The notes beneath the pieces were generated by a model. That model was given only the letters and a program-made list of their open reading frames with translations. It was not told where the DNA came from and made no database searches. 64,000 bases of DNA from Eledone cirrhosa (lineage: Eukaryota): NCBI GenBank assembly GCA_964016885.1, contig OZ024759.1:12338001-12402000 (forward strand). Reading direction: 5' to 3'. Shown here piece by piece: positions 3,483 through 60,234 of the stretch. Made by a program: the position numbers and the translations under genes. How positions within the stretch are numbered: position 1 is the first letter of the stretch; each line of letters opens with the position of its first letter.

Positions 3483-3592
3483 TGTTTCCGAAGAAGACGG
3501 TATATATTATGTCTGATAATATACTGTTCTCTAACTGCTATAGATTAGTCAATATATCAATATGATCAACCCTCCGAAACAATCGTAAAACA
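3483..3592 (+). ncRNA. Variant hammerhead-like motif with extended helix II
   Basis: tgttt-CCGAAGA-(~80 nt with hairpins)-GAAAC-aatc-GTA-aaaca; one core mismatch (U4C). Confidence 0.4.
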
Positions 3593-4015
3593 ATGAAAGA
3601 AATATGTAAAATAACTTGTTTTTGTTATTATCATCATTGTTAAATTAATATAATAATGATAATAATAATAATTGTTTCTACTTTAGGCACAAGACCAGCA
3701 ATTATCCAGTACATTACTGGTACTTTATTTTATCTACCCTGTAAGGATGAAAGGCAAAGAAAATTATTGTGTACAGTGCTCATGTGCACAGCAACTCATC
3801 AAGGGTGTATCTATAGTACATAGAATAATATACAAATGAAAGGAAAGTAAACAATACGAGACATGATATACACACAGATACATGTGTATGGATATATATG
3901 TAATATATCAGACTCTGAATCTGAGAGATTGGCTCAGTGAAACACGGAACCATTCTCTAGATCTCACTGAAATACTTACCAACGGATTGCATTAAGTTCT
4001 AACTACGGCATAGAC

Positions 4016-5558
4016 TAGGGGCTTGCAACAGGTGCCCCACGGGCCACAATCTGGCCCAGTCAGAGTGGCCCCTGATGACTTTTTAATTTTTACCTTGTAG
4101 GCTTATTTAGAATTTTTTTTGTAACTGTAATATAATTTTCTGTTAGTTGACCTATACTAAAGGGCTTCACTGATAGGGTTGTGTGTTATAATTTCCCAGT
4201 TGACCTATACTAAAGGGCTTCACTGATAGGGTTATGTGTTATAATTTCCCAGTTGACTTATACTAAAGCGCTTCACTGATAGGGTTATGTGTTATAATTT
4301 CCCAGTTGACCTATACTAAAGGGCTTCACTGATAGGGTTGTGTGTTATAGTTTCCCAGTTGACCTATATTAAAGGGCTTCACTGATAGGGTTGTGTGTTA
4401 TAATTTCCCAGTTGACCTATACTAAAGGGCTTCACTGATAGGGTTGTGTGTTATAGTTTCCCAGTTGACCTATACTAAAGGGCTTCACTGATAGGGTTGT
4501 GTGTTATAATTTCCCAGTTGACCTATACTAAAGGGCTTCACTGATAGGGTTGTGTGTTATAATTTCCCAGTTGACCTATACTAAAGGGCTTCCCTGATAG
4601 GGTTGCGTGTTATAATTTCCCAGTTGACCTATACTAAAGGGCTTCACTGATAGGGTTGTGTGTTATAATTTCCCAGTTGACCTATACTAAAGGGCTTCAC
4701 TGATAGGGTTGTGTGTTATAATTTCCCAGTTGACCTATACTAAAGGGCTTCACTGATAGGGTTATATGTGTTATAATTTACCAGTTGACCTATAGTAAAG
4801 GGCTTCACTGATAGAGTTGTGTGTTATAATTTCCCAGTTGACCTATACTAAAGGGCTTCACTGATAGGGTTATGTGTTATAATTTCCCAGTTGACCTATA
4901 CTAAAGGGCTTCACTGATAGGGTTATATGTGTTATAATTTCCCAGTTGACCTATACTAAAGGGCTTCACTGATAGGGTTATGTGTTATAATTTCCCAGTT
5001 GACCTATACTAATGGGCTTCACTGATAGGGTTGTATGTGTTATAATTTCCCAGTTGACCTATACTAAAGGGCTTCACTGATAGGGTTATATGTGTTATAA
5101 TTTCCCAGTTGACCTATACTAAAGGGCTTCACTGATAGGGTTGTGTGTTATAATTTCCCAGTTGACCTATACTAAAGGGCTTCACTGATAGGCTTATGTA
5201 TGTTATCATTTCCCCGTTGACCTATACTAAAGGGCTTCACTGATAGGGTTATATGTGTTATAATTTCCCAGTTGACCTATACTAAAGGGCTTCACTGATA
5301 GGGTTGTGTGTGTGATAATTTCCCAGTTGACCTATACTAAAGGGCTTCACTGATAGGGTTGTGTGTGTGATAACTTCCCAGTTGACCTATACTAAAGGGC
5401 TTCACTGATAGGGTTATGTGTGTTATAATTTCCCAGTTCCATGTTATGGAAAGAAGTTGAGGTTTTCATTAGAATGCATATTTTTGACAGTGACTGGCCC
5501 TAACAGTTGTTCCAATGTTCAAAAGTGGCCCACCAAAGGAGTATGTTGTACACCCCTG
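4016..5558. mobile_element. hAT (Charlie-like) MITE containing a minisatellite
   Basis: Imperfect TIRs TAGGGGCTTGCAAC / GTTGTACACCCCTG; 8-bp flanks gcatagac / ctatagac. Confidence 0.6.
4145..5437. repeat. Tandem repeat, 53-bp unit, ~24 copies
   Basis: AGTTGACCTATACTAAAGGGCTTCACTGATAGGGTTGTGTGTTATAATTTCCC. Confidence 0.95.
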
Positions 5559-5586
5559 CTATAGACCTTACCACGAAAGGTAGACT

Positions 5587-5618
<32 letters not shown>

Positions 5619-6684
5619 GTTACCAAGGCCATATAGTACAAACATTTTCTATAGCTCGGTTGCTCACAATTATTCACTCAATAAGAAATAGTTTGAACAT
5701 ATACTTGAGCCATCCATTCTGAGAGTGCTAACAGAATATTTGTAATGGAGCGGTTGCACGTAGTGTTACCCCGGACACAATTGTTTCTACGTTAGGCACA
5801 AGGCCAGCAATTACCCAGTGTATTACTGGTACTTTATTTTATCGACCCCGTAAGGATGAAAGGCAAAGTTAACCTCGGCGGGATTTGAACTCAGAGTGGC
5901 ACGGGCCGTAACTCTATGCGTCAAAGCATGGCGTCCGACCCTCTACCAATACTGCCAATCCACCGCCTGGACACAATGGGTTTCTGCAAGTGCAGACTGC
6001 ACCAACAGATGCAACTCGCAATCTGCTAGTTAAAGTGGCAGTATAAGTGCAAATATGCCTGCCAAATTACTGCAAAGCTTCGTCAGTTGATGTTATTAAA
6101 ATGCGAGAGACTTAAGGCATCCATGTCCAGCTTATGTGTGTAGGTCAGTTACTACTACCATAGCTAAAGTAGTTGGGAGTAAGTTGTGATGTAACGGCTG
6201 CAAGAAAGACCCTTTGTTCGCCTAGGGTCTGTGCTGGCGGGAAAATTGAAATGAGGTGTATTTCGGAATAAGTTGCTGTTATAGATCTCAAACATTTGAA
6301 AAATAGAATTGCCAAGGAATACTGAGACAATAGAATAATATATATAATGAAGGAGGTGTGGTAAGGAACCAGATGGACCATAACGCACCAGAGTACTCAA
6401 TACTTAGGGTAGTAGAGTGGGTAATGGAAAAATGTTTGACCCCGACGGCAGAGCTCAAGCCGTTTTGTTTAATGCATTTAATTGCTGACAATCGTTTCTT
6501 CCAGCAACAAGTAATTACATTCCTAGTCTTTAGAACATTACTGCTCTGTAATACATCTGATATTTTACATTGAGCTAATTTTCTTACTGGTAATTGGGTA
6601 ATAGAAAATATTACTCCCTCTTATTTATAATTGTATGTAGATCATATATATATATGTATGTAATAGTAATATATGTGAATGGCA

Positions 6685-7358
6685 AAGCATAAACGAACTA
6701 AGGGAGAAATTAGAAATAAGAGGGATCAGATGTTGTTTACTCGAGAGAAGACTACGTTGGTATGGTCACGTGATGCGCATGAAAGACGACAGCTGTATAA
6801 AAAAGTGCAGGGTGATAAAAATAGACGGTAGCCACGGAGTAGGCAGACCCAGAAAAACCTGGGACGACTTGATAAATTCTGACCTCACACACTTACACCT
6901 CTCCAAGACAATGTCACTGGACCGAGATCTTTGGCGCTACACAGTAATACAGAAGAACCGCCTTGCCTAAGTACAAAGCGAAACCTACAGTCAGTAGGCA
7001 CCTCTAACAAAATAACACCCACCCACCCCCGTCCTACTATCCACACCACCCCCTTAAATGTGAAGTTATGTTGGTACCACAACATCCAGCCCGAAATAAA
7101 TGAGGTCATGTAGGTGTCACGACAAAAAAACACACAGTCTACGCTGTAATGTGGCCGTGTAGGCAACACGGTAAAAACCTCCCAGTCCACACTGTAAATG
7201 TGGTTGGTGTTAGGAAGGGCATCCAGCCGTTGAAAACCCACCAGACAGTCCTATACGAGCAAGACAACCAATCTTGCCTCAAGTGGGAAACCTCCCGTCC
7301 AAACCCATGCAAGCGTGGAAGATGGACGTTAAACGATGATGATGATGATGATGATGAT
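6685..7358 (+). mobile_element. RTE LINE 3' fragment with (TGA)n tail
   Basis: [11 protein letters not shown]...[13 protein letters not shown] motif. Confidence 0.8.
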
Positions 7359-7408
7359 GTGTATATATATATATATACTGTATACATATATATGTGTATA
7401 TATATATA

Positions 7409-7460
<52 letters not shown>

Positions 7461-7474
7461 CTGTATATATATAT

Positions 7475-7630
7475 ATATACTGTATATGCTGGCGTACAAG
7501 TCGATCCTAAAATTCTGAGGTGTAATTCAGGTTTAGGCCTATATTTGCCAGATAAGACGACCCCAGAAAAATAAGGCAGTTGCAGGGGAAAATAATTTAA
7601 AAATTTAGTGACGCGTTAAAGCCTAAGACA
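7475..7630. mobile_element. Tigger/pogo-like DNA transposon end fragment (second copy ~52888-53072)
   Basis: TACTGTATATGCTGGCGTACAAGTCGA terminus and shared internal sequence. Confidence 0.45.
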
Positions 7631-7740
7631 CAATATTATAACAATATGACCCTCCCCAAATATAACAATATTTGTTTCAATACATGATTTCATATAAAAA
7701 AAACCTTGCAAAACAAATATATATGTATATATATACACAT

Positions 7741-8052
7741 CATCATTTCATCATTTTACGTCCGCTTTTCCCTGCTTGCAAGGGTGGGATGGGAACTGAT
7801 TCTGGCTTGATTTCTACAGCTGGATGCCCTTCCTAACACCAACCTCATTTACAGTGAGTGCTGGGTGCTTTTTTGCCGTGGCACCTCCACAACCACTTTG
7901 CAGTGGAATGATAGGGACCCCAGTCCCTATCATCTCATTTCTACAGCTGAGTAAACTGGAGCAATGTGAAATAAAGTGTCTTGCTCAAGGAAACAACACA
8001 TCACCCGGTCTGAGAATTGAACTCACAACCTTTCAAGGCCAATGCTCTAACC
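7741..8052 (-). mobile_element. tRNA-derived SINE family B (RTE-like tail, (TGA)n end)
   Basis: Near-identical copies at ~14560-14855, 42190-42525, 45080-45420, 46010-46345, 46968-47305, 53721-54064, 56103-56488. Confidence 0.85.
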
Positions 8053-8120
8053 ATATATATATATATGTGTATATATATATACATATTGGAAAATGTGTGA
8101 GATCCTTGGTACAGTCAGGT

Positions 8121-8310
8121 ATATTTGAAAAAAAGGAAAAGAATAACTTCACTTGTAGTGTTAAATAATTTGATTTAATTTTATAATATTGTAATGTTAT
8201 TATATTAGGAGTTGGTAGGTCTACCAACTCATAATATTATAATATTATAAAATTAAATCAAATTATTTAACACTACAAGTGAAGTTATTCTTTTCCTTTT
8301 TTTCAAATAT
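8121..8310. repeat. Near-perfect inverted repeat (fold-back A)
   Basis: Arms of ~95 bp centred at ~8220. Confidence 0.85.
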
Positions 8311-8415
8311 ATATATATATATATATGCAAAAGTTTTATTTAAGATTGTTGGGTTACAACGAGTAAATATTTTATAACTGATATAAAAGCACTCAACAGT
8401 TTCTGGAGTAGGTTT

Positions 8416-8726
8416 ACGATATTAAACAAATGGAAACTATATTTATAAAACCATATTTATTTCGTTATATATATTTCTGGGATATCATATTAAAAATATG
8501 GTATGCCTTCCTCAGACAAAATACAATACATAATCAACTACCAAATCAACTTTTTAAAAGGAAGTTGCATTATTACAAGGTATGTCACTAATTATTAATA
8601 AAACAGCTTATGTATTGTATTTTGTCTGAGGAAGGCATACCATATTTTTAATATGATATCCCAGAAATATATATAACGAAATAAATATGGTTTTATAAAT
8701 ATAGTTTCCATTTGTTTAATATCGTA
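8416..8726. repeat. Inverted repeat (fold-back B) carrying hammerhead motifs
   Basis: Arms ~8416-8532 and ~8609-8726. Confidence 0.85.
8618..8683 (+). ncRNA. Type-I hammerhead ribozyme motif (same family as 59466; inverted copy at ~8459-8524)
   Basis: tattttgt-CTGAGGA-aggcataccatatt..aatatgatatccca-GAAA-tatatata-acgaaata; downstream sequence shared with the 59.5 kb copy. Confidence 0.65.
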
Positions 8727-8743
8727 TATATATATATATATAT

Positions 8744-8969
8744 ATAAACGTTAGAATATGTGTAATAAGGCCAAGACAATGCAGATATGGACATAGAAAA
8801 AAGAATGCAATAGTGAGAGATATTGATGAGAATTCGTCTTTCACCTTGACATTTAAATAAATTCAAGGTGAAAGACGAATTCTCATCAATATCTCTCACT
8901 ATTGCATTCTTTTTTCTATGTCCATATCTGCATTGTCTTGGCCTTATTACACATATTCTAACGTTTATA
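8744..8969. repeat. Inverted repeat (fold-back C)
   Basis: ~105-bp arms around a ~13-nt loop. Confidence 0.85.
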
Positions 8970-9197
8970 CCTCATTACACAATGCTTCAAGTGAACTATA
9001 ACCTCCTCCTATATATATATATATATACAATATAAAAGAAAAGCGAACACATATTAATTTTCTTAATTTTTTCTTAAATTGAGGCAAGTGAACCCAATTG
9101 TCTACAGTTAGTATTCTTTTCACCTTAGCAAATCGGGTCCCTTACGATTTGAACACATATATCTATATATCTGTGTTCGTTTTTCTTTTATATTCTA

Positions 9198-10133
9198 CTA
9201 GCAGTAAAGCCCGGCGTTGCTCGGGGTCGCTCAGTAGCTGTGTTAAAGTTACAATGTTAAGTTTCTTTTTTGGCTTAAAAACTGTAGTGTCTACTGTGCA
9301 GACTTGCATGTGGTGTTTTTGATTAATATTCCCTCAACCAACAATATGCCTTATGAAGTTAAGAAAACATAACGATAACCCGAATGTTATAACAAAAGAG
9401 GATGCTGGGGATAAAAACTGCACTAGTTATTTATTAACAAAGATCGAAAATGTAAACACTGCAACGCAGAAAAAAACATTAGCGTAACCAAATTATCAGT
9501 TATGTCTGTCTGCACGCCTATATCACCTCTCTGCATGACTGTCTGTCTGCACGCCTATATCACCTCTCTGCACGACTGTCTGTCTGCACGCCTATATCAA
9601 CTCTCTGCACGACTGTCTGTCTGCACGCCTATATCACCTCTCTGCACGACTGTCTGTCTGCACGCCTATATCACCTCTCTGCACGACTGTCTGTCTGCAC
9701 GCCTAACGACGAAATATTTGCTTGTTTTACGTAGTCTTTAAATAGACTTGTTTTCAAGTAAAAATATTGTTTTAAAAGGCTTTTAAATGGAAATGAAGCA
9801 AAACGGAAGCTTAGTGTTCGAACTGATGAATTTTGCAGGTCAATATTTTGCTGGCTCTACAACTGTTAAAGCCAGCGTAATTTTTTACGTAAGACGCTCA
9901 ATGTAAACAGAACAAAGGGAAATAACTGATAACTTACGCTCAAAAATCGATACATTATATTCGATTTCGTCACATAGGGTGGGTGAATTTGAAATATTTT
10001 TTTTTCCGATGTCTTCGCTAGGGCTCAATGTACAAGTATAGCAATTTCGGTGCAATTCCGTGAGAGATTCTAAGAGGAGATGTGTGCCAAAAATCGATAG
10101 ACAGACAGACAACCACAGTTTTATATATATAGA
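9198..10133 (-). mobile_element. Non-autonomous Helitron with internal 37-bp tandem repeat (9503-9705)
   Basis: Minus strand A|TCTATATATA...CCCGAGCAACGCCGGG hairpin...CTAG|T. Confidence 0.8.
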
Positions 10134-10267
10134 TTATAATATACGGCTCAGAAATATCTCTTTCTTAGAGCTATTTTGTTGTAAGAGACTATTTTGGGTT
10201 CCTAACTCAATATATACATTTAATATATATATATACAGTAGAAGTCGCACTGATAGACACATTTTTC

Positions 10268-11158
10268 AAATGCAAGAGGGCGCTATAGAAGTGGTGGATA
10301 GTTTCCGGTACCTAGGAGATCAGATTAGCATGGGAGGAGGGTGTTCCGAGGCCATAGTATCTAGAATAAGGACGGGTTGGAAGAAGTTTAGGGAGCTGTT
10401 TCCTCTGTTGACGAAGAAGGGTTTCTCCCTGCGTACGAAAGGCCGGTTGTATGATGCCTGTGTGAGGAGCGCGATGCTGCATGGTAGTGAGACATGGGCA
10501 GCAACTGCAGAGGATATGCGACGGCTGGAGAAAAATGAGGCAAGCATGCTCCGTTGGATGTGCAGTGTAAATGTGCGTGAACGACCCAGCATGGATGTGT
10601 TGAGAGAGAAACTGTCTGAGAGGGATAGAATGTAGTGTACGGGAGAGGTGACTGAGGTGGTATGGACATGTGATGTGTTGAGAGAGAAACTGTGTCTGAG
10701 AGGGATAGAATGTAGTGTACGAGAGAGGTGACTGAGGTGGTATGGACATGTGATGTGTTGAGAGAGAAACTGTGTCTGAGAGGGATAGAATGTAGTGTAC
10801 GAGAGAGGTGACTGAGGTGGTATGGACATGTGATGTGTTGAGAGAGAAACTGTGTCTGAGAGGGATAGAATGTAGTGTACGAGAGAGGTGACTGAGGTGG
10901 TATGGACATGTGATGCGCATGGAGGATGACCGATGGGTGAAGAAGTGCCAGGAAATGCCAGTTGAAGGAAGACGTGGTAGAGGTAGACCACGAAAAACAT
11001 GGGCGGAGGTGGTGAGAACAGACCTCAGATCGCTGAAGCTCACGGTGGAGATGACGAAGGACCGTGAGAAGTGGAGAGATGCTGTGCTGAATAGGACCCA
11101 TCCCACCCTTGCAAGCAGGGAAGAGCGGACGTGAAATGATGATGATGATGATGATGAT
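10268..11158 (+). mobile_element. RTE LINE 3' fragment with internal 80-bp x4 duplication
   Basis: [25 protein letters not shown]; (TGA)n tail. Confidence 0.85.
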
Positions 11159-11187
11159 ATACATTAATGTGTATATATACATAAAGG

Positions 11188-11402
11188 ATCGATCGACTTT
11201 CGTCAAATCGGACCGAGGAAACAATGTTTCCGTTGGTCTTTCCAGTTGCTAATACTATCTATTGGTCGCAACTCCAGGTAGAAGGAACAATGTGAAATAA
11301 AGTGTCTTGCTGAAGGACATAACGCATCACCCGGTCCAGAAATCGAACTCACAGCCTCAAGATTGTGAATCCAATTCCCTAACCACTCAGCCACACGCCT
11401 TC
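11188..11402 (-). mobile_element. tRNA-derived SINE family C (structured 3' tail)
   Basis: Copies at 13546-13640 (partial), 44153-44366 and 46739-46950. Confidence 0.7.
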
Positions 11403-11953
11403 ATATATATGTATATATACATATATACACATATCTATACATCTAATCTAATCTGGCTGAGTTTTCACTCACAAATAAGAAGAACCAAGGCCGCCCCTAG
11501 GAACATTGGATTTGGTGTACTTCATATTTGTTTCAGTTGCTGAATACAATCAGGGGGTCACTGCTTCTCCTGAAGGTCAATAGTTCTTTTCTAACTCGAG
11601 TGGGAGCGCCTTTCCATCGTTAATTTGCATTGATCATCTGCAAAGCCGCATTGTTCTCAGAACCACTACACCAGTCTTTCGATGTGTGCAGCTGGAACTA
11701 CTGCCACCCATTGATTTGGCTGGATTTTTTTTTTTTTTTTCTTTTTTTTTTTAGATGGCTGTTAGTTCTTAGTTCTTCCACCCTTTGTCATGTTTTGTTT
11801 TTTGTTCTGCAGGGTGTCCAAAATCACCCTCCTCACCAAGAAACATGGTGGGGTTGCCGGATTAGTCACCGACGACCCGCCATGCGACAGGTTGTACTGA
11901 GTTACACGCTACCAGTAGCACTCGAGTGTGACCTGACATAATGTATATATATG

Positions 11954-12003
<50 letters not shown>

Positions 12004-12009
12004 TGTATA

Positions 12010-12910
12010 TCATCATCATCATCATCATCGTTTAACGTCCATCTTCCACGCTAGCATGGGATTGGACGGGAGGTTTCCCACTTGAGGCAAGATTGGTTGT
12101 CTTGCTCGCATAGGACTGTCTGGCGAGTTTTCTACGGCTGGATGCCCTTCCTAACACCAACCACATTTACAGTGTGGACTGGGAGGTTTTTACCGTGTTA
12201 CCTACACGGCCACATTACAGCGTGGACTGTGTGTTTTTTTGTTGTGACACCTACACGACCTCATTTGTTTCGGACTGGATGTTGTGGCACCAACATAATT
12301 TTACATTGAAAGGGGTGGTGTGGATGGGGTGGGGGTAGTGGGATGGGGGTGTATATTTGGTTAGGAGGTGCCTACTGACTGTAGGTTTCGCTTTGTACTT
12401 AGGCAAGGCGGGTCTTCTGTATTACTGCGTAGCGCCAAAGATCTCGGTCCAGTGACATTGTCTTGGAGAGGTGTAAGTGTGTGAGGTCGGAATTTAGCAA
12501 GTCGTCCCAGGTTTTTCTGGGTCTACCTACTCCGTGGCTACCGTCTATTTTTATCGCCCTGCACTTTTTTATACAGCTGTCGTCTTTCATGCGCATCATG
12601 TGACCATACCAACGTAGCCTTCTCTTGAGTAAACAACATCTGATCCCTCTTATTCCTAATTTCTCCCTTATTACTATTACACATCCAATGGAGCATGCAA
12701 GCTTCGTTCCTCTCCAGTCTGCGCAGATCCTCTGCACACAATGCCCAAGTCTCACTGCCATGTAACATTGCTGTTCGTATGCAGGCATCATACAGCCTGC
12801 CTTTCATTTTTAGAGAGAACCCTTTAGCGGCCAATAGTGGTATAAGCTCTCTGAACTTTTTCCATCCCGTACTGACTCTAGCTACTGTACTTTCAGAGCA
12901 CCCTCCACCG
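12010..12910 (-). mobile_element. RTE LINE 3' fragment
   Basis: [34 protein letters not shown]; frameshifted. Confidence 0.85.
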
Positions 12911-13113
12911 TGTCTCTGGCAGGTTTTTCACAGCTGGATGCCCTTCCTAACACTGACCACATTTACATATATATATATACACACACGTATGTGTATATAT
13001 ATATACACACACGTGTGTATATATATACATATATAACAAAGGAATTGTGGTAAGGAACCTAATGGACCATAACGCACCAGAGTACTCAATACTTAGGGTA
13101 GTAGAGTGGGAAC

Positions 13114-13394
13114 TAGGAAAAAGTATGACCCCGACGGCAGAGCTCAAGCCATTTCGATGGCTATTTCTGGACTAAATTAGAATTTTTAGCCTAGTGAATA
13201 AATAGCCAAACTTTTCAAGGGGGGTACTTCCTTATATGGGAAGACTGTAGTTGTCAACTACAATCTTCCCATATAAGGAAGTACCCCCTTGAAAAGTTTG
13301 GCTATTTATTCACTAGGCTAAAAATTCTAATTTAGTCCAGAAATATCTGTCGAAACAGCTTGAGCTCTGCCGTCGGGGTCATACTTTTTCCTAT
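13114..13394. repeat. Near-perfect palindrome of an L1/Tx1-like fragment
   Basis: Centre GTTG-T-CAAC at ~13254; SLYGKTVVVNY peptide; related sequence at 6357-6465. Confidence 0.75.
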
Positions 13395-14485: not shown

Positions 14486-14529
14486 TGCCGTCAATGTTTG
14501 ATATGTTTATTTTTATATGTCAATCGTCC

Positions 14530-14562
<33 letters not shown>

Positions 14563-15099: not shown

Positions 15100-15167
15100 A
15101 AAAAAAAAAAAATTATCTAGTTGGATATTATTTTAAATAGTTAATTTCTATTGACTTTATAAGTGAG

Positions 15168-45972: not shown

Positions 45973-46006
<34 letters not shown>

Positions 46007-47400: not shown

Positions 47401-47467
<67 letters not shown>

Positions 47468-49579: not shown

Positions 49580-49642
<63 letters not shown>

Positions 49643-50975
49643 TATATATATATGTATAATGTGTAATTCTCGGACCGGGTGATGTGTTGTTTCCTTGAGC
49701 AAGACACTTTATTTCACATTGCTCCAGTTTACTCAGCTGTAGAAATGAGATGATAGGGACTGGGGTCCCTATCATTCCACTGTAAAGTGGTCGTGGAGGT
49801 GCCACGGATAAAAAGCACCCAGCACTCACTGTAAATGAGGTTGGTGTTAGGAAGGGCATCCAGCTGTAGAAATCAAGCCAGAACCAGTTCCCGTATGAGC
49901 AAGGCAAGGTCAGCCGACCGGACACTGCCCACAACAGGACAACCTGTCTAACCCATGCTAGCGTGGAAGAACGGACGTAAAATGGTGATGATGATGATGA
50001 TGATATATAGAAAATGAGTGAAAAGTTAGATTGTAATTCATTTGATGAGAGGAAGTGTGAAGGAATTTTTAAGATAAAGTTACACCAAGTGATTACAAGA
50101 CTTGAACTGGGAGACACAAGTTAGTGTATAGTGAAACATGTGTCAAACATTAGGGAAGAAACATACCTTCTCCTCATATATATGTGTGTGTGTGTATACA
50201 TATATACATGTGTGTACATATACACACACTTTCATGTATGTGTATATACACACATGCATGTGTGTATATATATATACACACACACACACTCATATATATG
50301 TACATACATACACACACACATACATACACACTCATATATATATGTACATACATACACACGCACACACATACATATATATAATATATATACATACATATAC
50401 ACATATAATATATATATACATACACACACACTCACACATATATATACTCACACAATATTTATACATGTACATATACACACTTTCATGTATATACACACAT
50501 GCATGTGTGTATATATATATACACACACACACTCATATATATGTACATACATACACACACACATACATATATATAATATATATACATACATATACACATA
50601 ATATATATATACATACACACACACACACACATATATATACTCACACAATATTTATACATGTACATATACACACACTTTCATGTATGTGTATATACACACA
50701 TGCATGTGTGTATATATATATATACACACACATCATCATCATCATCATCATCATCATTGTTTAACGTCCATATTCCACGCTTGCATGGGTTTGGACGGGA
50801 GTTTTCCCACACACACTCATATATATGTACATACATATATACACACACACATACATATATATAATATATATACATACAAATACACATATAATATATATAT
50901 ATATACATACACACACACACACATATATATATATACTCACACAATATTTATACATGTACATATACACATACATAC

Positions 50976-51037
<62 letters not shown>

Positions 51038-54000
51038 AGTCACAAAACAAAGGATTCTTTATGTTCTAGTTCCAACTTCTAAAAATAACAGCTAAATTTC
51101 TTTAATATCACACACGACTGTCATTCTAATACTTGTTTCGACTTTAGGCACAAGGCCAGCAATTACCGAGTACATTACTGGTACTTTATTTTATCGACCC
51201 CGTAAGGATGAAAGACAAAGTTAGCCTCGGCGGGATTTGAACTCAGACTGTAAAGGGACGTAACTATGCTAGAAAGCATGGTGTCCGACCCTCTACCGAT
51301 ACTGCCAATTCACCGCCTTGACTGTCATTCTAATACTGAAGACGACATATATATATATATATATCAAGTAAGAACTAACCACTAAGCCATGTGCCTCCAT
51401 ATATATATATATATATCAAGTAAGAACTAACCACTAAGCCATGTGCCTCCATATATATATATATATATATATCAAGTAAGAACTAACCACTAAGACATGT
51501 GCCTCCATATATATATATATATCAAGTAAGAACTAACCACTAAGACATGTGCCTCCATATATATATATATATATCAAGTAAGAACTAACCACTAAGCCAT
51601 GTGCCTCCATATATATATATATATATATATATCAAGTAAGAACTAACCACTAAGCCATGTGCCTCCATATATATATATATATATCAAGTAAGAACTAACC
51701 ACTAAGCCATGTGCCTCCATATATATATATATATCAAGTAAGAACTAACCACTAAGCCATGTGCCTCCATATATATATATATATCAAGTAAGAACTAACC
51801 ACTAAGCCATGTGCCTCCATATATATATATATATCAAGTAAGAACTAACCACTAAGCCATGTGCCTCCATATATATATATATATCAAGTAAGAACTAACC
51901 ACTAAGCCATGTGCCTCCATATATATATATATATCAAGTAAGAACTAACCACTAAACCATGTGCCTCCATATATATATATATATCAAGTAAGAACTAACC
52001 ACTAAGCCATGTGCCTCCATATATATATATATATCAAGTAAGAACTAACCACTAAACCATGTGCCTCCATATATATATATATATCAAGTAAGAACTAACC
52101 ACTAAGCCATGTGCCTCCATATATATATATATATCAAGTAAGAACTAACCACTAAGCCATGTGCCTCCATATATATATATCAAGTAAGAACTAACCACTA
52201 AGCCATGTGCCTCCATATATATATATCAAGTAAGAACTAACCACTAAGCCATGTGCCTCCATATATATATATCAAGTAAGAACTAACCACTAAGCCATGT
52301 GCCTCCATATATATATATCAAGTAAGAACTAACCACTAAGCCATGTGCCTCCATATATATATATCAAGTAAGAACTAACCACTAAGCCATGTGCCTCCAT
52401 ATATATATATATATCAAGTAAGAACTAACCACTAAGCCATGTGTCTCCATATATATATATATATCAAGTAAGAACTAACCACTAAGCCATGTGCCTTCAT
52501 ATATATATATATATATCAAGTAAGAACTAACCACTAAGCCATGTGCCTCCATATATATATATATATCAAGTAAGAACTAACCACTAAGCCATGTGCCTCC
52601 ATATATATATATATATCAAGTAAGAATATTTTAGAAACAGCCGGCGAGTTTGAAATTAGAAATATAAGCTATTGCCGTATTTTGACTCAAGAAATTACTT
52701 AGGCTGATAGTGGGGTTAAGAACCCTCTGAGAAATGGAAAAAGATGAGTATTGACGTACATGGGAGTCGAACCCACATCTTTGGTTATCCAGACCACTGT
52801 GCTACCATTACACCAACACATCACCCGTCTTCTTCCGTTCATGCACCTTAGCACTGTACACAATAATTTTCATTATTATTATATATATCCTGTATATGCC
52901 AGCATACAAGTCGATCCGGTGCATAGGTCAACCCCTAAACTTCTGAGGTGTAATTCAGGCTTAGGCCTATATTCACTAATAAGACGCCCCCCCCCCCCCC
53001 CAAAAAAAAAAAAATAAGGCAGTTGCAGGGGTAATAATTAAAAAAATTTAGTGGCGCTCTAAAGGCTAAGACACTTCTTCTAAAACACTTCAGTCATAAG
53101 TGAGTTCTAATTCACTGAGTAAGCCAGCCTAGTCTAACCTTAACCTACCCTATGGTACCCTACCCTATGGTACCCTATCCTATGGTAACCTACCCTGTGG
53201 TAACTTAACCTATGGTAACCTACCCTATGGTACCCTACCCTATGGTACCCTATCCTATGGTAACCTACCCTATGGTAACCTACCCTGTGGTAACTTAACC
53301 TATGGTAACCTACCCTATGGTACCCTACACTATGGTAACCTACCCTATGGTAACCTACCCTGTGGTAACTTAACCTATGGTAACCTACCCTATGGTACCC
53401 TACCCTATGGTACCCTATCCTATGGTAACCTACCCTATGGTAACCTACCCTGTGAGCTACAGCAAGTCATTGATATTATTATAATCTCTACGTTAAATAG
53501 TCTTAACAATATGAGGTTCAGTAGGAAATAATTGTGGTGGGCTGCTAGAGTTATGGTAAGTGGTGTACAACGAGTGTTAGGCAGGCAGTTTCACTGTTTA
53601 CCCCTCAGTGGTAAGGGTTCACATTTTATATTTGGTGGACAAGTCAGCCCTTGTTTTTGGAGAGAGAGATTTTTAGGCTCCAAATGTCGACTTGTACGCC
53701 GAGTTGAAATTACAAACACATGGAGGCACATGGCTTAGTGGTTAGAGCATTGGCCTTGCAATCAAAAGGTTGTGAGTTCAATTCTCAGACCGGGTGATGT
53801 GTTGTTTCCTTGAGCAAGACACTTTATTTCACAGTGCTCCAGTTTACTCAGCTGTAGAAATGAGATGATAGGGATTGGGGTCCCTATCATTCCACTGTAA
53901 AGTGGTCGTGGAGGTGCCACGGCAAAATAGCACCCAGCACTCACTGTAAATGAGGTTGGTGTTAGGAAGGGCATCCAGCTGTAGAAATCAAGCCAGAATC

Positions 54001-57000
54001 AGTTCCCGTCCCACCCTTGCAAGCAGGGAAAAGTGGACGCAAAAATGAAATGATGATGATGATGAAACAGCATAGCTGTCAAAATTCTAATTTTTCAAAT
54101 TATCCTCCTTACCACCATCGAGACGGAGTTGGCTACCCACGGGTGTGAACCTCGTCTGCTGGAATGGCTCTTCCAGTGTGACTCTTTCACCATCCTCCGG
54201 GAAACACCTTCTCTACTCTGCCCCCTGGGGCTGTGGGGTGGCCACACTTGCTCATAATAGTGAGAGATGGGGAAAGCGGGAGAGATGGAGGCAGTGGAAG
54301 TTAGGTTCCGTTGTGTTCAGACCTGATGTATATGTATATACAGTGTACCCACTATGTATTTGTGGTCCCAGTTATTCGTGGAATTTTCCTTAGAACCTAA
54401 CTAATAATTGTTTGTGAAAACCACCACATATTCACGGAATCATAAATATCTTCCGTGATTTTTTTTAATGATTTATATTTGATTTATATTTTTTATGATT
54501 TATATATATATATATATATGAGCATAAGAGGAATCAAATGCTGTGTGCAGGAGAGGAGGTTGTGTTGGTATGGACATGTGATGTGTATGAAGGATGACAG
54601 CTGCATAAAAAGGTGCAGAGCACTAGAAGTCGATGGAAGACCCAAGAAGACCTGGGATGAGGTTATAAAAGCCGACCTTACCCAATTGCACCTCTCAAAG
54701 GCGATAACACAGGACCATGACCTCTGATGTCACGCAGTAATACAGAAGACCCGATTTCCCATGGGTGCACGCCGAAGCTGAAGCATATAGACAATATGCC
54801 CCATCCCCTCCCACTGATAAGTGGTCATGGAGGTGCCACGGAAAAAAAAGCACCCAGCGCTCACTGTAAATGAGGTTGGTGGTAGGAAAGGCATCCAATT
54901 GTAGAAATCAAGCCAAAATCAGTTCCCGTATGAGCAAGACAAGGACACCCGACCGGGTGCTATCCACAACAGGATAAAACCTGTCTAACTCATGCTAGCA
55001 TGAAAGAATGGACGTAAAACAGTGATGATGATTATTTATTTTGAGAACAATATCTTAACATCAGTATGAGTGGCCAGTTACAGTCAGTTTGAAGAAAAAG
55101 AGGTGAGAGAATTCTGGCCGGATACGGCTAGTTTAAATGCTAAGGTAGGTCCAGCATTGTATACGACTGGCTGTCTCTATAGAGTTATAGGTAGGTCCAA
55201 CATTGTATAGGACTAGCTGTCTCTATGTATTTGAGGTTTCTAAAACCATAGCAACGTTAAAACACTTAAACTTTGCGGCGTAACCAAACAGGTGAGCAAT
55301 AGAATTAGCTGGTAACCCACTTAGTCTGGATTGTTAATTATACCAATGAGGTGAGGTGAAGGAAGATGGTGGTGGATTGGCAGAATTGGTTGAACGTCAA
55401 CACCTTTGTAGTATTTGACCTTGTTCGTGACATTCTGAGTTCAAATCCTGGTGAGGTTAAAGTTATATATTTTTGTGTTATATAAAAAACAAAAACCAAC
55501 TGGCAGGAGACCCAAGGGTAGACCTCAAGCAAGATGATTGGATAACATATATGAGCTTGGCTGGTCATGCTTTGAGATCCAGCTGGATCAATAGGAGATG
55601 GTTGCTTCTGACACGACCTGCTGGAAGGAGTGTTTCAGGACTCTTCCCCCATGATCCTCTCAGGAATAAGGGGGCAAAAAAGAAGATATATTTATAAGAG
55701 GGCAGTGAATTGGCAGAGTCTTTAGAACATCAGATAGGACACTTTTAGGTATTTGTTCCAGCTCTCTTCTCTCTGAGTTCAAATCCAACCGAGCTCAACT
55801 TTGCCTTTTGTTCTTTCAAGTTTGATTTTTAAAGAAGTACCAGTTAAGTACTGGTTGATTTTTCCTCTATATCTCTCTCTCTCACACTGTCTATTCTTCA
55901 TGAGAAGAAATGTGCTGGAGAGGAGATGGTTTCTGCCAGATTTAAAAACCAATGCCCTTGAAACACCGTATGTCACTACAGTGCCCCTACAACTCCATCA
56001 GGATTTATGGGACTATGCCTATTTATAAGGTTCCATGAATTCTATTTTTATGTGAAACATGATGATTATAATATATTTTCTTTCATTTTGATTTTATATT
56101 TTATGGCTTAGTGGTTAGAGCATTGGGCTTGCAATCGATAGGTGTGAGTTCAATTCTTGGACAAGGTGATGTGTTGTTTCCTTGAGCAAGACACTTTATT
56201 TCACGTTGCTCCAGTTTACTCAGCTGTAGAAATGAGATGATAGGACTGGGGTCCATATCATTCCACTGCAAAGTGGTCGTGGATGTGCCACGGAAAAAAG
56301 CACCCAGCCCACACTGTAAATGAGGTTGGTGTTAGGAAGGGCATCCAGCTGTAGGAATCAAGCCAGAATCAGTTCCCGTATGAGCAAGACAAGGTCAGCC
56401 GACCGGATACTGCCCACAACAGGACAATCCGTCTAACCCATGCTAGCGTGGAAGAATGGATGTAAAATGGTGATGATGATGATGATGAATTAATTTATAT
56501 TTAGCAAGGGAGGAGGGTGCTCCAAGGCCATAGTATCCAGAATAAGGATGGGTTGGAAAAAGTTTAGGGAGCTGCTTCCTCTGTTGACAAAGAAGAGTTT
56601 CTCCCTACGAACAAAAGGCTGGTTATATGATGTCTGTGTGAGATGCGCGATGCTGCATGGTAGTGAGACATGGACAGCAACTGTGGAGGATATATGGCAG
56701 CTGGAGAGAAATGAAGCCAGCATGCTCCGATGGATGAGTTGTGAGAGAAACTGTGTATAAGAGGAATAAACTCTAGTGTGCGGGAGAAAAGACTGAGTTG
56801 ATATGGACATGTGATGAGCATGGAGTATGACTGCTGGGTAAAGAAGTGTCAAGAAATCCCAGTAGAAGGAAGACGCAGTCAAGGAAGACCACGAAAAACA
56901 TGGGTGGAGGTGGTGAGAGCAGACTTCAGGTCGCTGAAACTCACAGAGGAGATGACAAAGGACCGTGACGAACGGAGAGATGCCGTGTTCAATAAGACCC

Positions 57001-58096
57001 ATCCCACCCTTGCAAGCAGGGAAAAGCAGACGTAAAATGATGATGATGATGATGTAATTAAGTATTGCATATTGCTAAAATTTAAAGTGCATTTCTGAAA
57101 AAACCTTATGGTGAGATAAAAAGTACCAGTTAATTACTGGGGTCTAATTTTCCTCTATATCTCTAAGAATAGATAAAATAAACAAACAAATACTGGGGAT
57201 TGTCCAGCCGCTTCCACTTCGCACCGGTCACTGTCAAAACCTCAGGCATCCTCGGACCCAATACTTTGGAGCTCCTCTGCAAAATCAGAACATCAGCAGC
57301 CTGTCTGAGGAAGGAGCTTAGTAAGGTGGGGTGGCTGTTGCAGCAGGTGTCTGGTTATTGTCTGCGGGACGCAGTCCCAACACTGCCACATCCTAGGCCT
57401 AGAGCCCATCACCCTCTTACCTTCCCTCTACATATATTATTTTGTAAGACTGCTATGTCTTGAAAATTTGCTAAATATATCATCATCATACAAATTCAAT
57501 TGAACCCTGACTTGTTAAACCCCACTTTCACCTCCGCCCCTTCAGTACTGGGGTTGATTTAACCCTTTAGCATTTAAACTGGCCATATCTGGCCAGAATT
57601 CTCTCACCTCTTTCTGTTCAAATCGGCTGTAACTGGCCACTCATACTGACATTAAGGTATTGTTCTCGGAATAAATAATATCAAAATCTCATAGATTTCA
57701 TATTATATATATATTGAATAATGTAAATGTTATGTGAGATATTATGTGAGGTAAAGCCTTTACAAAAGGGCGCATAATGGGCGAAATACTTTGAAAGGAA
57801 GTTAACCCTGAAATGGGAATACAAATGGAATAAAACAAGTTTCGCGTAAACTGGACCACAGGTTCCCGACATATAGGGTTTTTCTGGGTACCTTCATAAA
57901 CAAAGAGAGAGAGAAAGATATGGAGAAAGAGATAGTGGTTGTGAGAGAGTAGATTGAAAGAGAGACATAGAGAGAAGGAGAATAGAAGAGAGAGAGAGAG
58001 CTGGTGGTGTTGTGTATATATATATATATGTGAGTGTGTGTGTATATATGTATATGTGTGTGTGTCTATGACCAGTGTATATAGATCACAGACACC

Positions 58097-58140
<44 letters not shown>

Positions 58141-60234
58141 AAAGAATAGAGGTGTAACACACAAGTTATTATATATTGGTAAACGGAATAGAAAATGCTG
58201 ACAAATTGTTCACAGTTGAAAAATGGTTTAATTAGGAATAAAAGAGTATTAGTGATTGTATGGGTTAGTATTCAGTTGTGGTTTTAAGTTTTTAAGTTTT
58301 TACCGGTTGCGCTTTTCTAAATGCTTTTCAAAAATAATTTTGAGATAGAGTGTCCGTGCTGTTTGCTCTGATCTGTAAAAACTTAAAAACTTAAAAACTG
58401 ACCGGTAAAAACTTAAAAACTTAAAACCACAACTGAATACTAACCCATACAATCACTAATACTCTTTTATTCCTAATTAAACCATTTTTCAACTGTGAAC
58501 AATTTGTCAGCATTTTCTATTCCGTTTACCAATATATATATATATATACACACACACATTTATATATATACATACACACACGTTCTTCCTCTCAACAACA
58601 TCATCTTCCGTATTCCCAATCTTTGCTCCCAAATACAGGAAGTCCTCAACCAATTCTAGCGGCCTCCCGCCTACATTAGTGATCCCCTCTGGCTTCTCAA
58701 CATTCTCTACCAGATATTTTGTTTTAGTCTCATTCATTCTCAGCCCCACACTCATCGACACAGTCTCAACCTCCTGCATCAAATCCTCTGCCTCCTTCAC
58801 TGTATTTGTCACCAAAACAATGTCGTAAGCAAATTCAGCATCCGATATCTTTTTCGCCTTAACTCTCCTGGACACACTGGAAGAGGAAGACCAAGGTTTA
58901 ACGTATGTTGATGCCCTAAGGACAGACACTGGTCTGTTGGAGACGCAGGACATGGCAGCGATAATGAGGGACAGAGACCGCTGGAGAGAACTCGTCCATG
59001 GATCTCGGGAATTTTACCCGCCCTAGATACACACATATATATATATATATGGGGCCTTCCACTTTCATTTCACATTATATACATGTCTGTGTATATTTTA
59101 ATTATTTGAAAATTATTTTTAAGTGAACATGATTTAAAAAAAATATATATATATGTCTGTGCCTGTTCGACCACGGCTGATCTGGAGACTAAATAACAAC
59201 TAAACTATTACAACAACAACAACAACTACCAAGGCCTTGTTTCAGGGGGGTATCAGGGGACAAGTCCACCTACCACCCCACACTTTTTCAAGAACGGGGG
59301 GGGGGGGGGGGACACAAACCATCTTTTGTCGCCCCCTACTTTTCCCCAATTAACAAACAAAGAAACCCACTAACAAGTCATACATATGTATAATACATAT
59401 TTTTACATGTTTATTTATGTGCATATATTTCTATGAATATATAAATATTTATAAAACAAACTTTGTATTTTATCTGAAGAGAGCGTACCAAAGTTTTGGT
59501 ACCCTTGAAATATATATAATAGAATAAATATGGTTTTATAAATATAGTTTCAATTTATCATTGTATATATGTATATATATATAAAATTTGCCTTGGTTGT
59601 TCTTGAAATATATATAATAAAATAATTATGGTTTTATAAATATAGTTTCCATTTATTAATATATTGAATATTTACCCCACTTATATGTTGAGTGCTTTAT
59701 ATTAGTTATAAAAATTTAATATCATTATAGTTTAGATTCATATTATACTCCAGAAAATATGTCGAGTGCTTCGAAACTGTTATAAATAAATATATATATT
59801 TGTTGAATTACCAACAAATTAAATATCCCTTTGCTTATATGAATATATATATAGACCCTAACTTGCAATCGGTATTGAATTTTGTTCTATATTTATATCA
59901 ATTTGTTAAAAATTAAAAAGATCAACTCATCAATAATTTGATTGAGAATTGTATAACATTTTTATAAGTATTTATCTAAGTTAATATAGATAAATATACA
60001 ATACATTGTTTATCAAACTGTTGGTCTGTCACCCTCACACATTTTATAGGCAAACGTAGACCTACACTACTACTACTACCACCACAAATACTACTGTTAC
60101 TACTACTACTACCACTACTACTACTAGTATTAAGAATTATCTTTTATACTTACCAAAAGTATGAAAGTTCCCAAAAACTCAGCCAAAAAACATCTGATTA
60201 ATTTATTGCCGATTTGACAAGTACACAACTTCAT
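22056..60234 (-). CDS. AQP: Aquaglyceroporin (MIP family, AQP3/7/9/10-like), 6 coding exons: 60234-60154, 44055-43929, 40430-40293, 34181-34063, 24720-24503, 22242-22056; 289 aa
   Basis: Exons join in frame through GT-AG introns (81+127+138+119+218+187=870 nt). The protein has [42 protein letters not shown] and [18 protein letters not shown] marks a glycerol-permeable channel. Exact vertebrate orthologue not assignable. Confidence 0.95.
22360..22950 (-). mobile_element. CR1-like LINE 3' fragment
   Basis: [10 protein letters not shown]...NTRGH..K...[16 protein letters not shown]. Confidence 0.8.
24503..24720 (-). CDS. AQP: Aquaglyceroporin exon 5 ([16 protein letters not shown]...[26 protein letters not shown])
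   Basis: Second NPA(RD); polypyrimidine/AG acceptor, GTATGT donor; 218 bp. Confidence 0.95.
24883..25562 (-). mobile_element. Helitron interrupted by a TTAA MITE (25000-25434), itself interrupted by a SINE (~25207-25395)
   Basis: TC/CTAG termini, homology to 259-469, TTAA-flanked TIRs. Confidence 0.7.
25581..33785. repeat. Tandem array, 82-bp unit, ~100 copies (aquaporin intron 4)
   Basis: GTTGTTACAGCTCTCACCTACAAGGTTGTATCTCATAGGAGTTTTGTTGTTTTAATGAAAGGGACCTCAGTCCTAACATGTA. Confidence 0.97.
34063..34181 (-). CDS. AQP: Aquaglyceroporin exon 4 ([40 protein letters not shown])
   Basis: Loop C FATYP motif; tttAG acceptor, GTAAG donor; 119 bp; not in the ORF track. Confidence 0.93.
34201..37583. 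repeat. Tandem array, 26-bp unit, ~130 copies (aquaporin intron 3)
   Basis: AACAGTCTAAAGTTACTGTGCACAGC. Confidence 0.97.
38318..39498. repeat. Tandem array, 47-48-bp unit, ~25 copies
   Basis: GACAGTGTCTTTCATTAGAAATATGGTAATGAAAGGGTTAATGACATA. Confidence 0.93.
40293..40430 (-). CDS. AQP: Aquaglyceroporin exon 3 ([45 protein letters not shown])
   Basis: First NPA motif; AG/GT boundaries; 138 bp. Confidence 0.95.
40825..41885 (+). repeat. ~123-bp tandem repeat (~8 copies) amplified from a LINE 3' coding segment
   Basis: Translates as [35 protein letters not shown], followed by an RPRGRP..RW.DNI-type LINE end. Confidence 0.85.
42860..43750 (-). mobile_element. L1/Tx1-like LINE 3' fragment
   Basis: [14 protein letters not shown] and CPRC..DIETLKH zinc-binding motif; AATAAA near the 3' end; frameshifts. 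Confidence 0.75.
43929..44055 (-). CDS. AQP: Aquaglyceroporin exon 2 ([43 protein letters not shown])
   Basis: ttcttAG acceptor, GTGAGT donor, 127 bp. Confidence 0.93.
44856..44930 (-). ncRNA. Type-I hammerhead ribozyme motif
   Basis: Minus strand ctatttcat-CTGATGA-acagctagac..gtctagtttctt-GAAAC-atttg-GTA-atggaatgg. Confidence 0.65.
47525..48300 (-). mobile_element. RTE LINE 3' fragment
   Basis: [13 protein letters not shown]...[11 protein letters not shown]...GRPRKTW. Confidence 0.85.
48596..48634 (-). ncRNA. Minimal type-I hammerhead ribozyme motif (cleanest copy)
   Basis: Minus strand gttg-CTGACGA-tagctaataagctt-GAAAC-ta-GTA-cggc; palindromic ACTAGT helix III and GUA cleavage triplet. 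Confidence 0.8.
48716..48754 (+). ncRNA. Minimal type-I hammerhead ribozyme motif
   Basis: gttg-CTGACGA-tagct(aata)agctt-GAAA-ttag-TA-cagc; stems I and II can form. Confidence 0.7.
50175..51035. repeat. Compound (TA)/(CA) low-complexity region with internal duplications
   Basis: Direct inspection. Confidence 0.85.
51347..52626. repeat. Tandem repeat: 34-bp SINE-head-derived segment plus variable (AT)n, ~25 copies
   Basis: CAAGTAAGAACTAACCACTAAGCCATGTGCCTCC(AT)n. Confidence 0.92.
52752..52822 (-). pseudogene. tRNA-like sequence (GGA at anticodon position, short variable arm); SINE head or pseudo-tRNA
   Basis: A box TGGTGTAATGG and B box GGTTCGACTCC; foldable cloverleaf with several G-U pairs and one mismatch. 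Confidence 0.5.
53140..53453. repeat. 15-bp minisatellite
   Basis: ACCCTATGGTAACCT repeats. Confidence 0.9.
54520..55032 (+). mobile_element. Decayed RTE 3' fragment with SINE-like tail
   Basis: [13 protein letters not shown]...GRPKKTW. Confidence 0.75.
56500..57053 (+). mobile_element. RTE LINE 3' fragment
   Basis: [27 protein letters not shown]; same family as 10268-11158. Confidence 0.85.
58171..58536. repeat. Inverted repeat, ~135-bp arms
   Basis: Arms 58171-58306 and 58401-58536; degenerate hammerhead-like CTGACAA..GAAA. Confidence 0.85.
58582..59025. mobile_element. RTE-type LINE fragment with 5' inversion
   Basis: Minus-strand RT motifs ([20 protein letters not shown]) abut a plus-strand C-terminus (GRGRP..DRDRWR). 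Confidence 0.65.
59466..59526 (+). ncRNA. Type-I hammerhead ribozyme motif
   Basis: tattttat-CTGAAGA-gagcgtaccaa(agtt)ttggtaccctt-GAAA-tatatata-atagaata. Confidence 0.7.
60154..60234 (-). CDS. AQP: Aquaglyceroporin exon 1 ([27 protein letters not shown])
   Basis: ATG at 60234, AEFLGT TM1 motif, phase-0 GTAAGT donor at 60153. A CAG just upstream of the ATG could be an acceptor for a further 5' exon. Confidence 0.9.

Follow-up and report, generated by a model that had tools for sequence, protein, structure and literature searches.

A 64,000-nt stretch of the Eledone cirrhosa genome (assembly GCA_964016885.1, contig OZ024759.1, positions 12,338,001 to 12,402,000; hereafter the window, numbered from its first letter) contains a set of hammerhead ribozyme motifs. 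These are probably type I hammerheads located at the 3' ends of Penelope-like elements inserted into (TA)n tracts, which likely cut only when they are paired in tandem transcripts, and their copies in introns are likely silent.

Hammerhead motifs in the window and in the genome

With a type I descriptor, six intact hammerheads were found in the window (both arms of two fold-backs are included in this count), against a mean of 0.035 and a maximum of 1 in 200 local dinucleotide shuffles, which preserve the local dinucleotide content. A comparison with dinucleotide-shuffled sequence had been proposed in the first-pass annotation of this DNA, and the five intact motifs which that annotation named were all recovered at their coordinates with the core, GAAA, the UH triplet and formable stems I-III. 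A stricter first descriptor found three of the six motifs and missed A and B, with 0.03-0.05 expected. The motifs follow the type I order, CUGANGA ... GAAA ... UH, with the U4C core of family H as the exception. By genome search, each intact motif is a member of a dispersed family, and the first-look candidates numbered 478 for A, 1042 for B, 1460 for C and 629 for D (40 scored per family), and 1165 for family H. The motifs and the insertions that hold them are as follows.

3483..3592, plus strand: family H hammerhead variant, single arm, core CCGAAGA (U4C), stem II of 81 nt, broken stem III palindrome
8327..8724: family A insertion with (TA)n tracts on both sides, a fold-back of a Hydra-clade 3' end
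8327-8533: inverted left arm of family A, with a 90-nt tail, ending at the long end (site 2)
8458..8523, minus strand: family A hammerhead of the inverted arm, core at 8515, same as the plus-strand copy (0/106 mismatches between arms)
8537-8724: right arm of family A, ending at the short end (site 1)
8618..8683, plus strand: family A type I hammerhead, stem I of 8 bp, core CTGAGGA, 31-nt stem II with an A.A base
44774..45010: family B insertion, a fold-back with its junction immediately 5' of the ribozyme, ends approximate
44856..44930, minus strand: family B type I hammerhead, stem I of 9 bp, 37-nt stem II, GUA site
48325..48967: family C fold-back insertion, 430-nt non-coding unit, ends approximate
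48594..48636, minus strand: family C type I hammerhead, 14-nt stem II with a U.U base, palindromic stem III ACTAGT
48716..48754, plus strand: family C hammerhead of the other arm, stem III altered to ATTAGT
59446..59563, plus strand: 3' end of family D (sister family of A) with one arm only, of the short-end kind, antisense to the host gene
59466-59526, plus strand: family D hammerhead, 8-bp stem I, 26-nt stem II, stem III ATATATAT
59585-59718, plus strand: fragment of a related family, truncated within stem II (half hammerhead)
59736-59853, plus strand: D tail after the half hammerhead (whole piece 59585..59853)

The window hammerhead of family A has the palindromic stem III ATATATAT, and its cut is predicted after AUA at 8675. 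Family B is an older Hydra-clade family with copies 73-93% alike, and stem III of its window copy is damaged (ACATTTGGT versus the family form ACCTTTGGT). The ACTAGT stem III of family C cannot close as a monomer. The 3' flank and tail are common to families A and D. The earlier statement that at least four of the motifs share no flank is thus right only in part, because the motifs at 8.6 kb and 59.5 kb have a common 3' flank, which leaves three unrelated groups, or four when the motif at 3483 is counted. Likewise, inverted repeats were said to hold most of the motifs, which is the case for the fold-backs A, B and C but not for the D and 3483 copies, which have no inverted arm. The motif at 3483-3592 had been taken as degenerate. 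It is indeed damaged here, with a deletion that leaves stem II at 81 nt and with a broken palindrome, but it is not merely decayed, since its family has a U4C core of its own (CCGAAGA in 17 of 20 family motifs), a stem I of 8-10 bp and a stem II of 93 nt. The other supposed degenerate hammerhead, at 58198-58230, had to be dropped: it reads CTGACAA, without G8, and eight related loci supply no hammerhead. The description of the hammerheads as minimal does not fit either, because stems II are long, 26-38 nt in A, B and D and 93 nt in the 3483 family.

When families B, C and D were scanned singly against Rfam, no hammerhead match was obtained (E<=10), and in a scan of the whole window, which covers A and H too, there was no hammerhead among the best 150 of the 251 matches listed. 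Since Rfam misses three window families scanned singly, annotation pipelines likely undercount such motifs. In the available main text of a 2026 octopus repeat annotation, there is no mention of ribozyme, hammerhead, Hydra or retrozyme (PMC13282606), and literature searches for hammerheads in octopus returned only Craig et al. 2021 as relevant.

In unselected DNA, represented by forty 10-kb stretches at round coordinates from 19 large contigs only (400 kb), 28 motifs were found, one of which looks like chance, versus 0.225 in 40 shuffles. At about 70 motifs per Mb, 4.5 motifs are expected in 64 kb and about 200,000 in the 3.0-Gb genome, an estimate with a Poisson range of roughly 140,000-300,000. 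The window is ordinary for this genome in this respect. The population had been called dense, which is correct, but the density is that of the whole genome and is not particular to the window. For the axolotl, whose genome is much larger, 126,247 motifs have been reported in the account available (PMC7229834); the estimate for 3 Gb here is higher, with descriptors that differ between the two counts.

Covariation and folding of the three stems

The covariation set consisted of 590 sites from 1.74 Mb of fetched DNA, which is enriched for the families searched. The sites were chosen on the core, a foldable stem II and stem III, and were clustered, and the 43 clusters present in at least 2 loci were kept. 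No criterion was set on stem I, and the register was set by stem III alone; with stems II and III serving as selection criteria, only stem I is an independent test. Across the 43 clusters, the first four stem I positions were paired in 80%, versus 45% with permuted partners (maximum 58% of 2000 permutations) and 40-43% when the partner was slid. At least three of the four pairs were formed in 34 of 43 clusters, with four to five pair types per position. Because the clusters are related to one another, the permutation count is not a probability.

In the 34 well-paired clusters, stem II spans 14-106 nt, the longest being probably mis-registered, and stem III is a perfect palindrome in 18, with eleven different sequences. 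Every well-paired cluster also has the other catalytic core positions and an NUH triplet that could be cleaved, both being demanded by the descriptor. The first and last bases of stem II are A.A in family A, A-U in B, U.U in C, G.U in D and A.C in H; U.U at this place is a known tolerated variant. Four further clusters have stems II of 81-91 nt and palindromic stems III, at L302 (589), L134 (5094), L286 (1329) and L261 (9674), one of them with C at core position 4. U4C is known as a natural, slow hammerhead variant, as described in the available text of PMC3088659. For stem III, no monomer hairpin was formed in any of the 7 sequences folded, and homoduplexes of four family forms have energies of -3.2 to -10.0 kcal/mol. 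The stem I covariation and the mostly palindromic stem III suggest that these are dimer-type ribozymes.

Such dimer-type hammerheads are known from Penelope elements (Cervera and de la Pena 2014, PMC4209133), and the motifs here are like them, as far as that account extends, in the palindromic stem III, in an often present extra base after the core, in the many sequence families per genome and in the weak predicted monomer activity. By this analogy, the system would work like the published dimer-type Penelope hammerheads. A difference is that the published ones keep the G10.1-C11.1 pair and stems II of 7-8 bp, whereas here the pair varies and stems II reach 93 nt (PMC4209133).

It is highly improbable that the motifs are chance products of AT-rich inverted repeats which were copied passively with the elements. 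The weak folding z-scores reported below and the absence of an Rfam match would suit such an origin, and copies inside one family are not independent evidence, but the window has six motifs against 0.035 and unselected DNA has 28 against 0.225. In addition, the compensatory changes occur between unrelated clusters, so that the cross-family covariation already contradicts a chance origin, and the motifs occupy the same position in the element as the published Hydra hammerheads.

Parent elements, fold-backs and the proposed mechanism

Walking upstream from family A led to a reverse transcriptase (RT) and then to a GIY-YIG endonuclease. In a search with the C-terminal half of the A protein, 120 of 88,167 candidates were scored, all of them 90-100% identical, and many have open frames of 700-750 amino acids (aa). 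The word remnants, used earlier, is therefore not suitable for the parents of family A, which are young and often have intact frames. Among 30 loci selected by open reading frame (ORF), the A hammerhead lies 1.13-1.45 kb after the stop in 26 and is also present in a 27th, in which the frame was not called. The complete A unit at locus L129 has 3727 nt with an intact 741-aa frame. The motif readout covers A and G: the A protein has RWR (not RWK), DKT, CxCX5C, CxxC..E and CxH, and family G, the neighbour of B, has all the Hydra motifs, with RWK. The marks given for the Hydra clade include RWK, DKT, CxCX5C, CxxC and CxH around E and N, without CCHH, in elements generally shorter than 3 kb (PMC8557442, in the text available).

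For family B, a broken Hydra frame over aa 1-733 starts 265 nt after the hammerhead in L200, a spacing as in intact family G, and pieces of the frame are found in the inverted arms of L201 and L202. For family D, the endonuclease end lies 1.0-1.45 kb upstream of the hammerhead in 7 of 15 loci, together with one RT-side piece. In a quick tree of 23 rows, A, B, F and G stand with database relatives, apart from one Neptune-like row, which is a long branch, and the B piece groups with G and F; published sequences were compared by eye only. Two named relatives of the element protein are from an octopod. Pfam gave nothing on the Hydra proteins, so it is by their motifs that they are placed in the clade. 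A, B and D are all inserted into (TA)n with the hammerhead near the 3' end and, judged from sequence, are truncated 3' ends of Hydra-clade Penelope-like elements. Consistently, the genome-wide extension of the families that had been proposed reached Hydra-clade RT-endonuclease parents for A, B and D, and the prediction of non-coding Penelope remnants or retrozyme-like elements at (TA)n was borne out, with C as the 430-nt head-to-tail unit. The reported absence of an RT/GIY-YIG frame also held, since tblastn found no Hydra-type RT/endonuclease frame in the window.

Family G itself (L206-L208; G000:C12, C1, C3) is very young, with many copies, 714-aa open frames and equal scores, and has about 1.9 kb from the stop to the hammerhead. 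Naiad, which has a (TA)n target and a published 'half core' label, was considered as parent of the window motifs and was ruled out for A, B and D by their C-terminal endonuclease.

Hydra elements with hammerheads at (TA)n have been published, including one octopus family (PMC8557442, Files S1-S2), and published work also covers hammerheads in tandem repeats and the connection of these with Penelope elements. As far as that account goes, the elements here resemble Hydra-1_Obim and the Hydra clade (Craig et al. 2021, PMC8557442) in the single frame of RT and C-terminal GIY-YIG with DKT, CxCX5C, CxxC and CxH and without CCHH, in the (TA)n target, in a type I hammerhead that lies about 100 nt before the 3' end, and in the inverted, 5'-truncated partner with a tail at one end only. 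They differ from the published Hydra elements (PMC8557442) in a unit of 3.7 kb (A) to about 4.3 kb versus less than 3 kb, which is a tendency only, in a stop-to-ribozyme distance of 1.0-1.9 kb in most families, in the 90-nt tail of A versus 30-40 nt, and in the many young families with open frames of 714-750 aa. The core-to-GAAA span is 26-93 nt here and does not exceed about 26 nt for the Hydra motifs of File S2, so that D is within the published range, A and B are longer and H is far longer; two spike-moss elements flagged as deviant in the same file have a longer span as well (PMC8557442). The association itself is known, and the additions are the long stems, the U4C family and the copy number.

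The ends of the insertions follow a regular pattern. Copies of family A stop at one of two fixed 3' sites 90 nt apart, and in tandems the long end lies about 50 nt before the start codon. In the 30 ORF-selected loci, 12 copies end at the long site and 14 at the short site, and 4 gave no clear assignment. When loci were selected by the short end, an inverted arm was present within 1.5 kb in 23 of 30, and all 23 arms run through the tail to the long end; with longer fetches, five of five further short-end loci also reach it (28/28 overall), and 2 of the 30 have no inverted arm. Both ends were visible in 11 of 20 ORF-selected loci, with one of each kind in 10 of the 11. Overall, 38 of 39 A fold-backs have one long and one short end, and 10 of 12 C fold-backs have two different ends. 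Family H has the same two-ended anatomy as the other families. In A, each of the two ends is followed by a small bulged hairpin; in B and D the hairpin comes after the short end, and it was not found in C or H. The one-sided tail has been described qualitatively for published elements (PMC8557442, in the part available), to which the counts of ends per fold-back are an addition.

The arms of one A insertion differ by 0.8% (56/7079), versus 2.6% between copies (with pairs from 25 of 29 loci), and an arm is nearest to its own partner in 10 of 10 overlaps of at least 200 nt. Both arms of a fold-back are thus assigned, by sequence comparison, to the same source. Pairing of RNAs from different source loci was ruled out because the arms match their own partner best, a pattern that conversion between arms could mimic.

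Family C differs in its organization. In 4 of 20 loci (L064, L065, L066 and L068), C cores are 425-433 nt apart on one strand, forming head-to-tail arrays. By sequence criteria, C is a putative retrozyme without long terminal repeats (LTR). Among the sequencing runs listed for family C there was no RNA run. It resembles the metazoan non-LTR retrozymes (Cervera and de la Pena 2020, PMC7229834; bioRxiv 10.64898/2026.07.22.740005), as presented in the available texts, in its short non-coding head-to-tail units with one type I hammerhead each, and its length of 430 nt is at the upper edge of their 150-450 range. The U.U at the base of stem II is shared with axolotl HHR_Amex2, and the palindromic stem III with retrozymes (PMC7229834). 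Unlike the retrozymes of these sources, C forms (TA)n fold-backs with two fixed ends, which is Penelope-like. Cephalopods are not named among the retrozyme hosts in the available portions of either source (PMC7229834; bioRxiv 10.64898/2026.07.22.740005). A second retrozyme-like family was observed at L253:6638-7750, where three 528-nt tandem units each have a hammerhead with a stem II of 49-50 nt and a 10-nt palindromic stem III.

Family H is likely of the same origin as the (TA)n-inserted Penelope-like families. A Hydra-like frame beside L285 was considered as its parent and rejected, because a TA tract separates the frame from the H copy.

These features would fit the following mechanism. 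A tandem transcript (end-ORF-end) would join two hammerheads through the palindromic stem III and would be trimmed to unit length. The RT-endonuclease would then nick both strands of a (TA)n tract and, using two internal start sites, one for each strand, would make two 5'-truncated cDNAs, which would be joined head to head to give the fold-back. Intronic copies would be silent passengers. In vitro, two internal RT start sites bound the tail in the Poseidon element PAc of Anolis (Frangieh et al. 2024, PMC11167929), which, in the text available, is also like the elements here in its AT-rich targets and in the cutting and extension of both strands. PAc showed no strand preference for either site in vitro (PMC11167929), whereas here the arms use different sites (38/39 in family A).

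Several observations weigh against this reading. The G10.1-C11.1 closing pair is present in no window motif and in only 5 of the 34 well-paired clusters, and because it is rare, the ribozymes of some families may be slow or inactive. Folded in isolation, the motifs score no better than their shuffles (z of -0.86, -1.01, 0.59 and -0.24), with D as the exception (-2.75), and the nine of 43 clusters without stem I are probably chance or mis-registered. The ORF-selected fold-back of L133 has two long ends, and 2 of 12 C fold-backs do not fit. No linked parent frame was found for H in 8 loci extended to 10 kb, and no parent or helper element was found for C. In the only purified system, insertion did not require ribozyme cleavage, and none of the reads stopped at the cut site, according to the available text of PMC11167929. 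Cutting only in pairs and its block by mirror copies are predicted from sequence and folding, and the trapping of the sense hammerhead of an intronic fold-back in a long hairpin is predicted by an equilibrium calculation.

Some of these points would be expected if the hammerhead were kept mainly as a module for pairing and protein binding, in which stem III clamps the two ends of one tandem RNA and the enzyme primes both strands, with cutting secondary or lost in some families. Whereas positions relevant to catalysis drift (U4C in several clusters; G10.1-C11.1 in 5/34), a palindromic stem III is retained in 18 of 34, and the same 3' region was copied twice in 15 of 23 fold-backs, over up to 3.1 kb in L133, which requires two template copies or re-copying. 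The dispensable cleavage in vitro and the modelling of the protein as a dimer (PMC11167929, in the part available) agree with it. Such a module nevertheless seems unlikely. The rest of the core and the NUH triplet are found in all well-paired clusters, with the reservation that the descriptor requires them; dimeric cleavage already accounts for palindromic stems III (PMC4209133, in the available text); the same-source arms exclude random pairing of RNAs from different loci; and fold-backs of the same kind are made in this genome by Neptune-like elements, near whose end no hammerhead was seen. A doubtful but conceivable extension of the cutting mechanism is that the hammerhead doubles as an RNA clamp, in which stem III would lock two ribozymes, present the two ends to a dimeric RT-endonuclease and so dictate the fold-backs with one long and one short end. 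If this were true, the same geometry would silence the ribozyme in both directions, and it would explain about 200,000 intronic motifs, dozens of families, stems II of up to 93 nt and U4C cores.

The role of the hammerhead in Penelope-like elements is still open in the published accounts, as far as available (PMC8557442, PMC11167929). In the present genome, intact and young elements of the Hydra clade occur together with a non-coding passenger and with dozens of natural variants of the ribozyme, which makes that role directly testable.

Host introns and other repeats

The host features of the window are given below.

3034-3178 and 14943-15099, plus strand: last two exons of an unnamed gene, splice in phase
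3179..14942, plus strand: probable intron of the unnamed gene, GT at 3179 and AG at 14942, in-phase junction of two single-copy frames; holds H and A
22056..60236, minus strand: host aquaglyceroporin gene, Pfam MIP on 3 of the 5 exon frames scanned, start approximate
44056-60153, minus strand: aquaglyceroporin intron 1; contains the B, C and D insertions as well as the Neptune-like end
58138..58535: 3' end of a Neptune-like element, inserted as a fold-back, tail of about 35 nt; 58198-58230 lies antisense in it

The first-pass annotation had placed the motifs inside introns of both genes. This stands for B, C and D, which are in aquaglyceroporin intron 1. For A and the motif at 3483 the intron is a probable one, and the gene around them has no family support: a search of Pfam and Atlas gave no match for the unnamed plus-strand gene. 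The aquaglyceroporin gene is of the six-exon type and extends over 38 kb; five exon frames were located and the fourth was not found. Satellite arrays also lie in its introns, one with 99 units of 82 nt and one with 130 units of 26 nt.

When the whole elements were folded as RNA, 100% (A), 59% (B) and 94% (C) of the hammerhead bases paired outside the motif. With arms placed head to head, transcription of either strand always passes through the complement first and reaches the sense hammerhead only afterwards. In the window, A, B and C lie behind an antisense arm, D is antisense to the host gene and the palindrome of H is broken. No window copy is predicted to cut host RNA efficiently. The opposite possibility, that the long stem II stabilises the fold and the ribozymes cut as monomers, also in host introns where they would trim or regulate pre-mRNA, seems quite unlikely. 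Folding energies of -5 to -17 kcal/mol were obtained for stems II of 26-93 nt, the B motif alone forms stem I with a probability of 0.61 and has a stem III of 3 bp, and a density of about 70 motifs per Mb makes intronic sense copies common. Against monomer cutting, stem III forms no monomer hairpin, each window copy is shielded, antisense or damaged as described, and the copies decay like neutral insertions.

The Neptune-like element (58138-58535; L202:5035-8383; L253:7979-10000) has a 3' region of 1.3-1.5 kb, a (TA)n fold-back and a one-sided tail of about 35 nt. No hammerhead was found near its 3' end, and in 8 related loci no CUGANGA core was in register with GAAA and three stems. Its parent, reached via L202 and L212, has a 441-aa frame in L253 with a C-terminal GIY-YIG carrying CCHH and a CX2-5CxxC linker.

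Other repeats were also observed in the window. A near-perfect inverted repeat with arms of about 80 nt (8795-8960) directly follows the A insertion and has no hammerhead core. A 123-nt tandem repeat x 8 at 40833-41803 has CTGANGA in several units and no three-stem fold under the descriptor. A tRNA-like short interspersed nuclear element (window 11213, 44177 and 46928, and many loci) is a recurrent false match to the relaxed descriptor, with a CCGAGGA core and no stem I. Other retroelement fragments lie at 14095-14490 (minus strand), 57182-57463 (plus strand) and 42986-43800, with RTE-like pieces throughout and other RT-associated domains.

Outside the window, repeats were observed with the hammerhead blocks in the non-circular order cleavage site, GAAA, core; no such motif is present in the window. 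These are high-copy, non-coding units of about 350-510 nt that end at (TA)n (L305-L334 and L335-L364, also L012, L033, L093, L113, L214 and L265), and their stems covary. The 40 scored copies are 98-100% identical. The loop that continues stem III is one which we take to be kink-turn-like. The order itself corresponds to the type SGC order in the available text of PMC10085705. No paper on the rearranged motif was returned by a literature search on permuted hammerheads in Naiad, and no Naiad frame was found upstream of 10 candidate ends in this genome. By eye, the motif was not seen in 11 further published Naiad 3' ends, three of which, from nematode and spider, show the core and GAAA in the ordinary order. 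Three published elements, Naiad_Obim, Naiad_Ovul and Naiad_Esco, do end in the same rearranged order as judged by eye, and two of them are labelled 'half core'. A second rearranged pattern gave 124 matches versus 1 in the control, with both stems of at least 4 bp in 8 of the 30 fetched.

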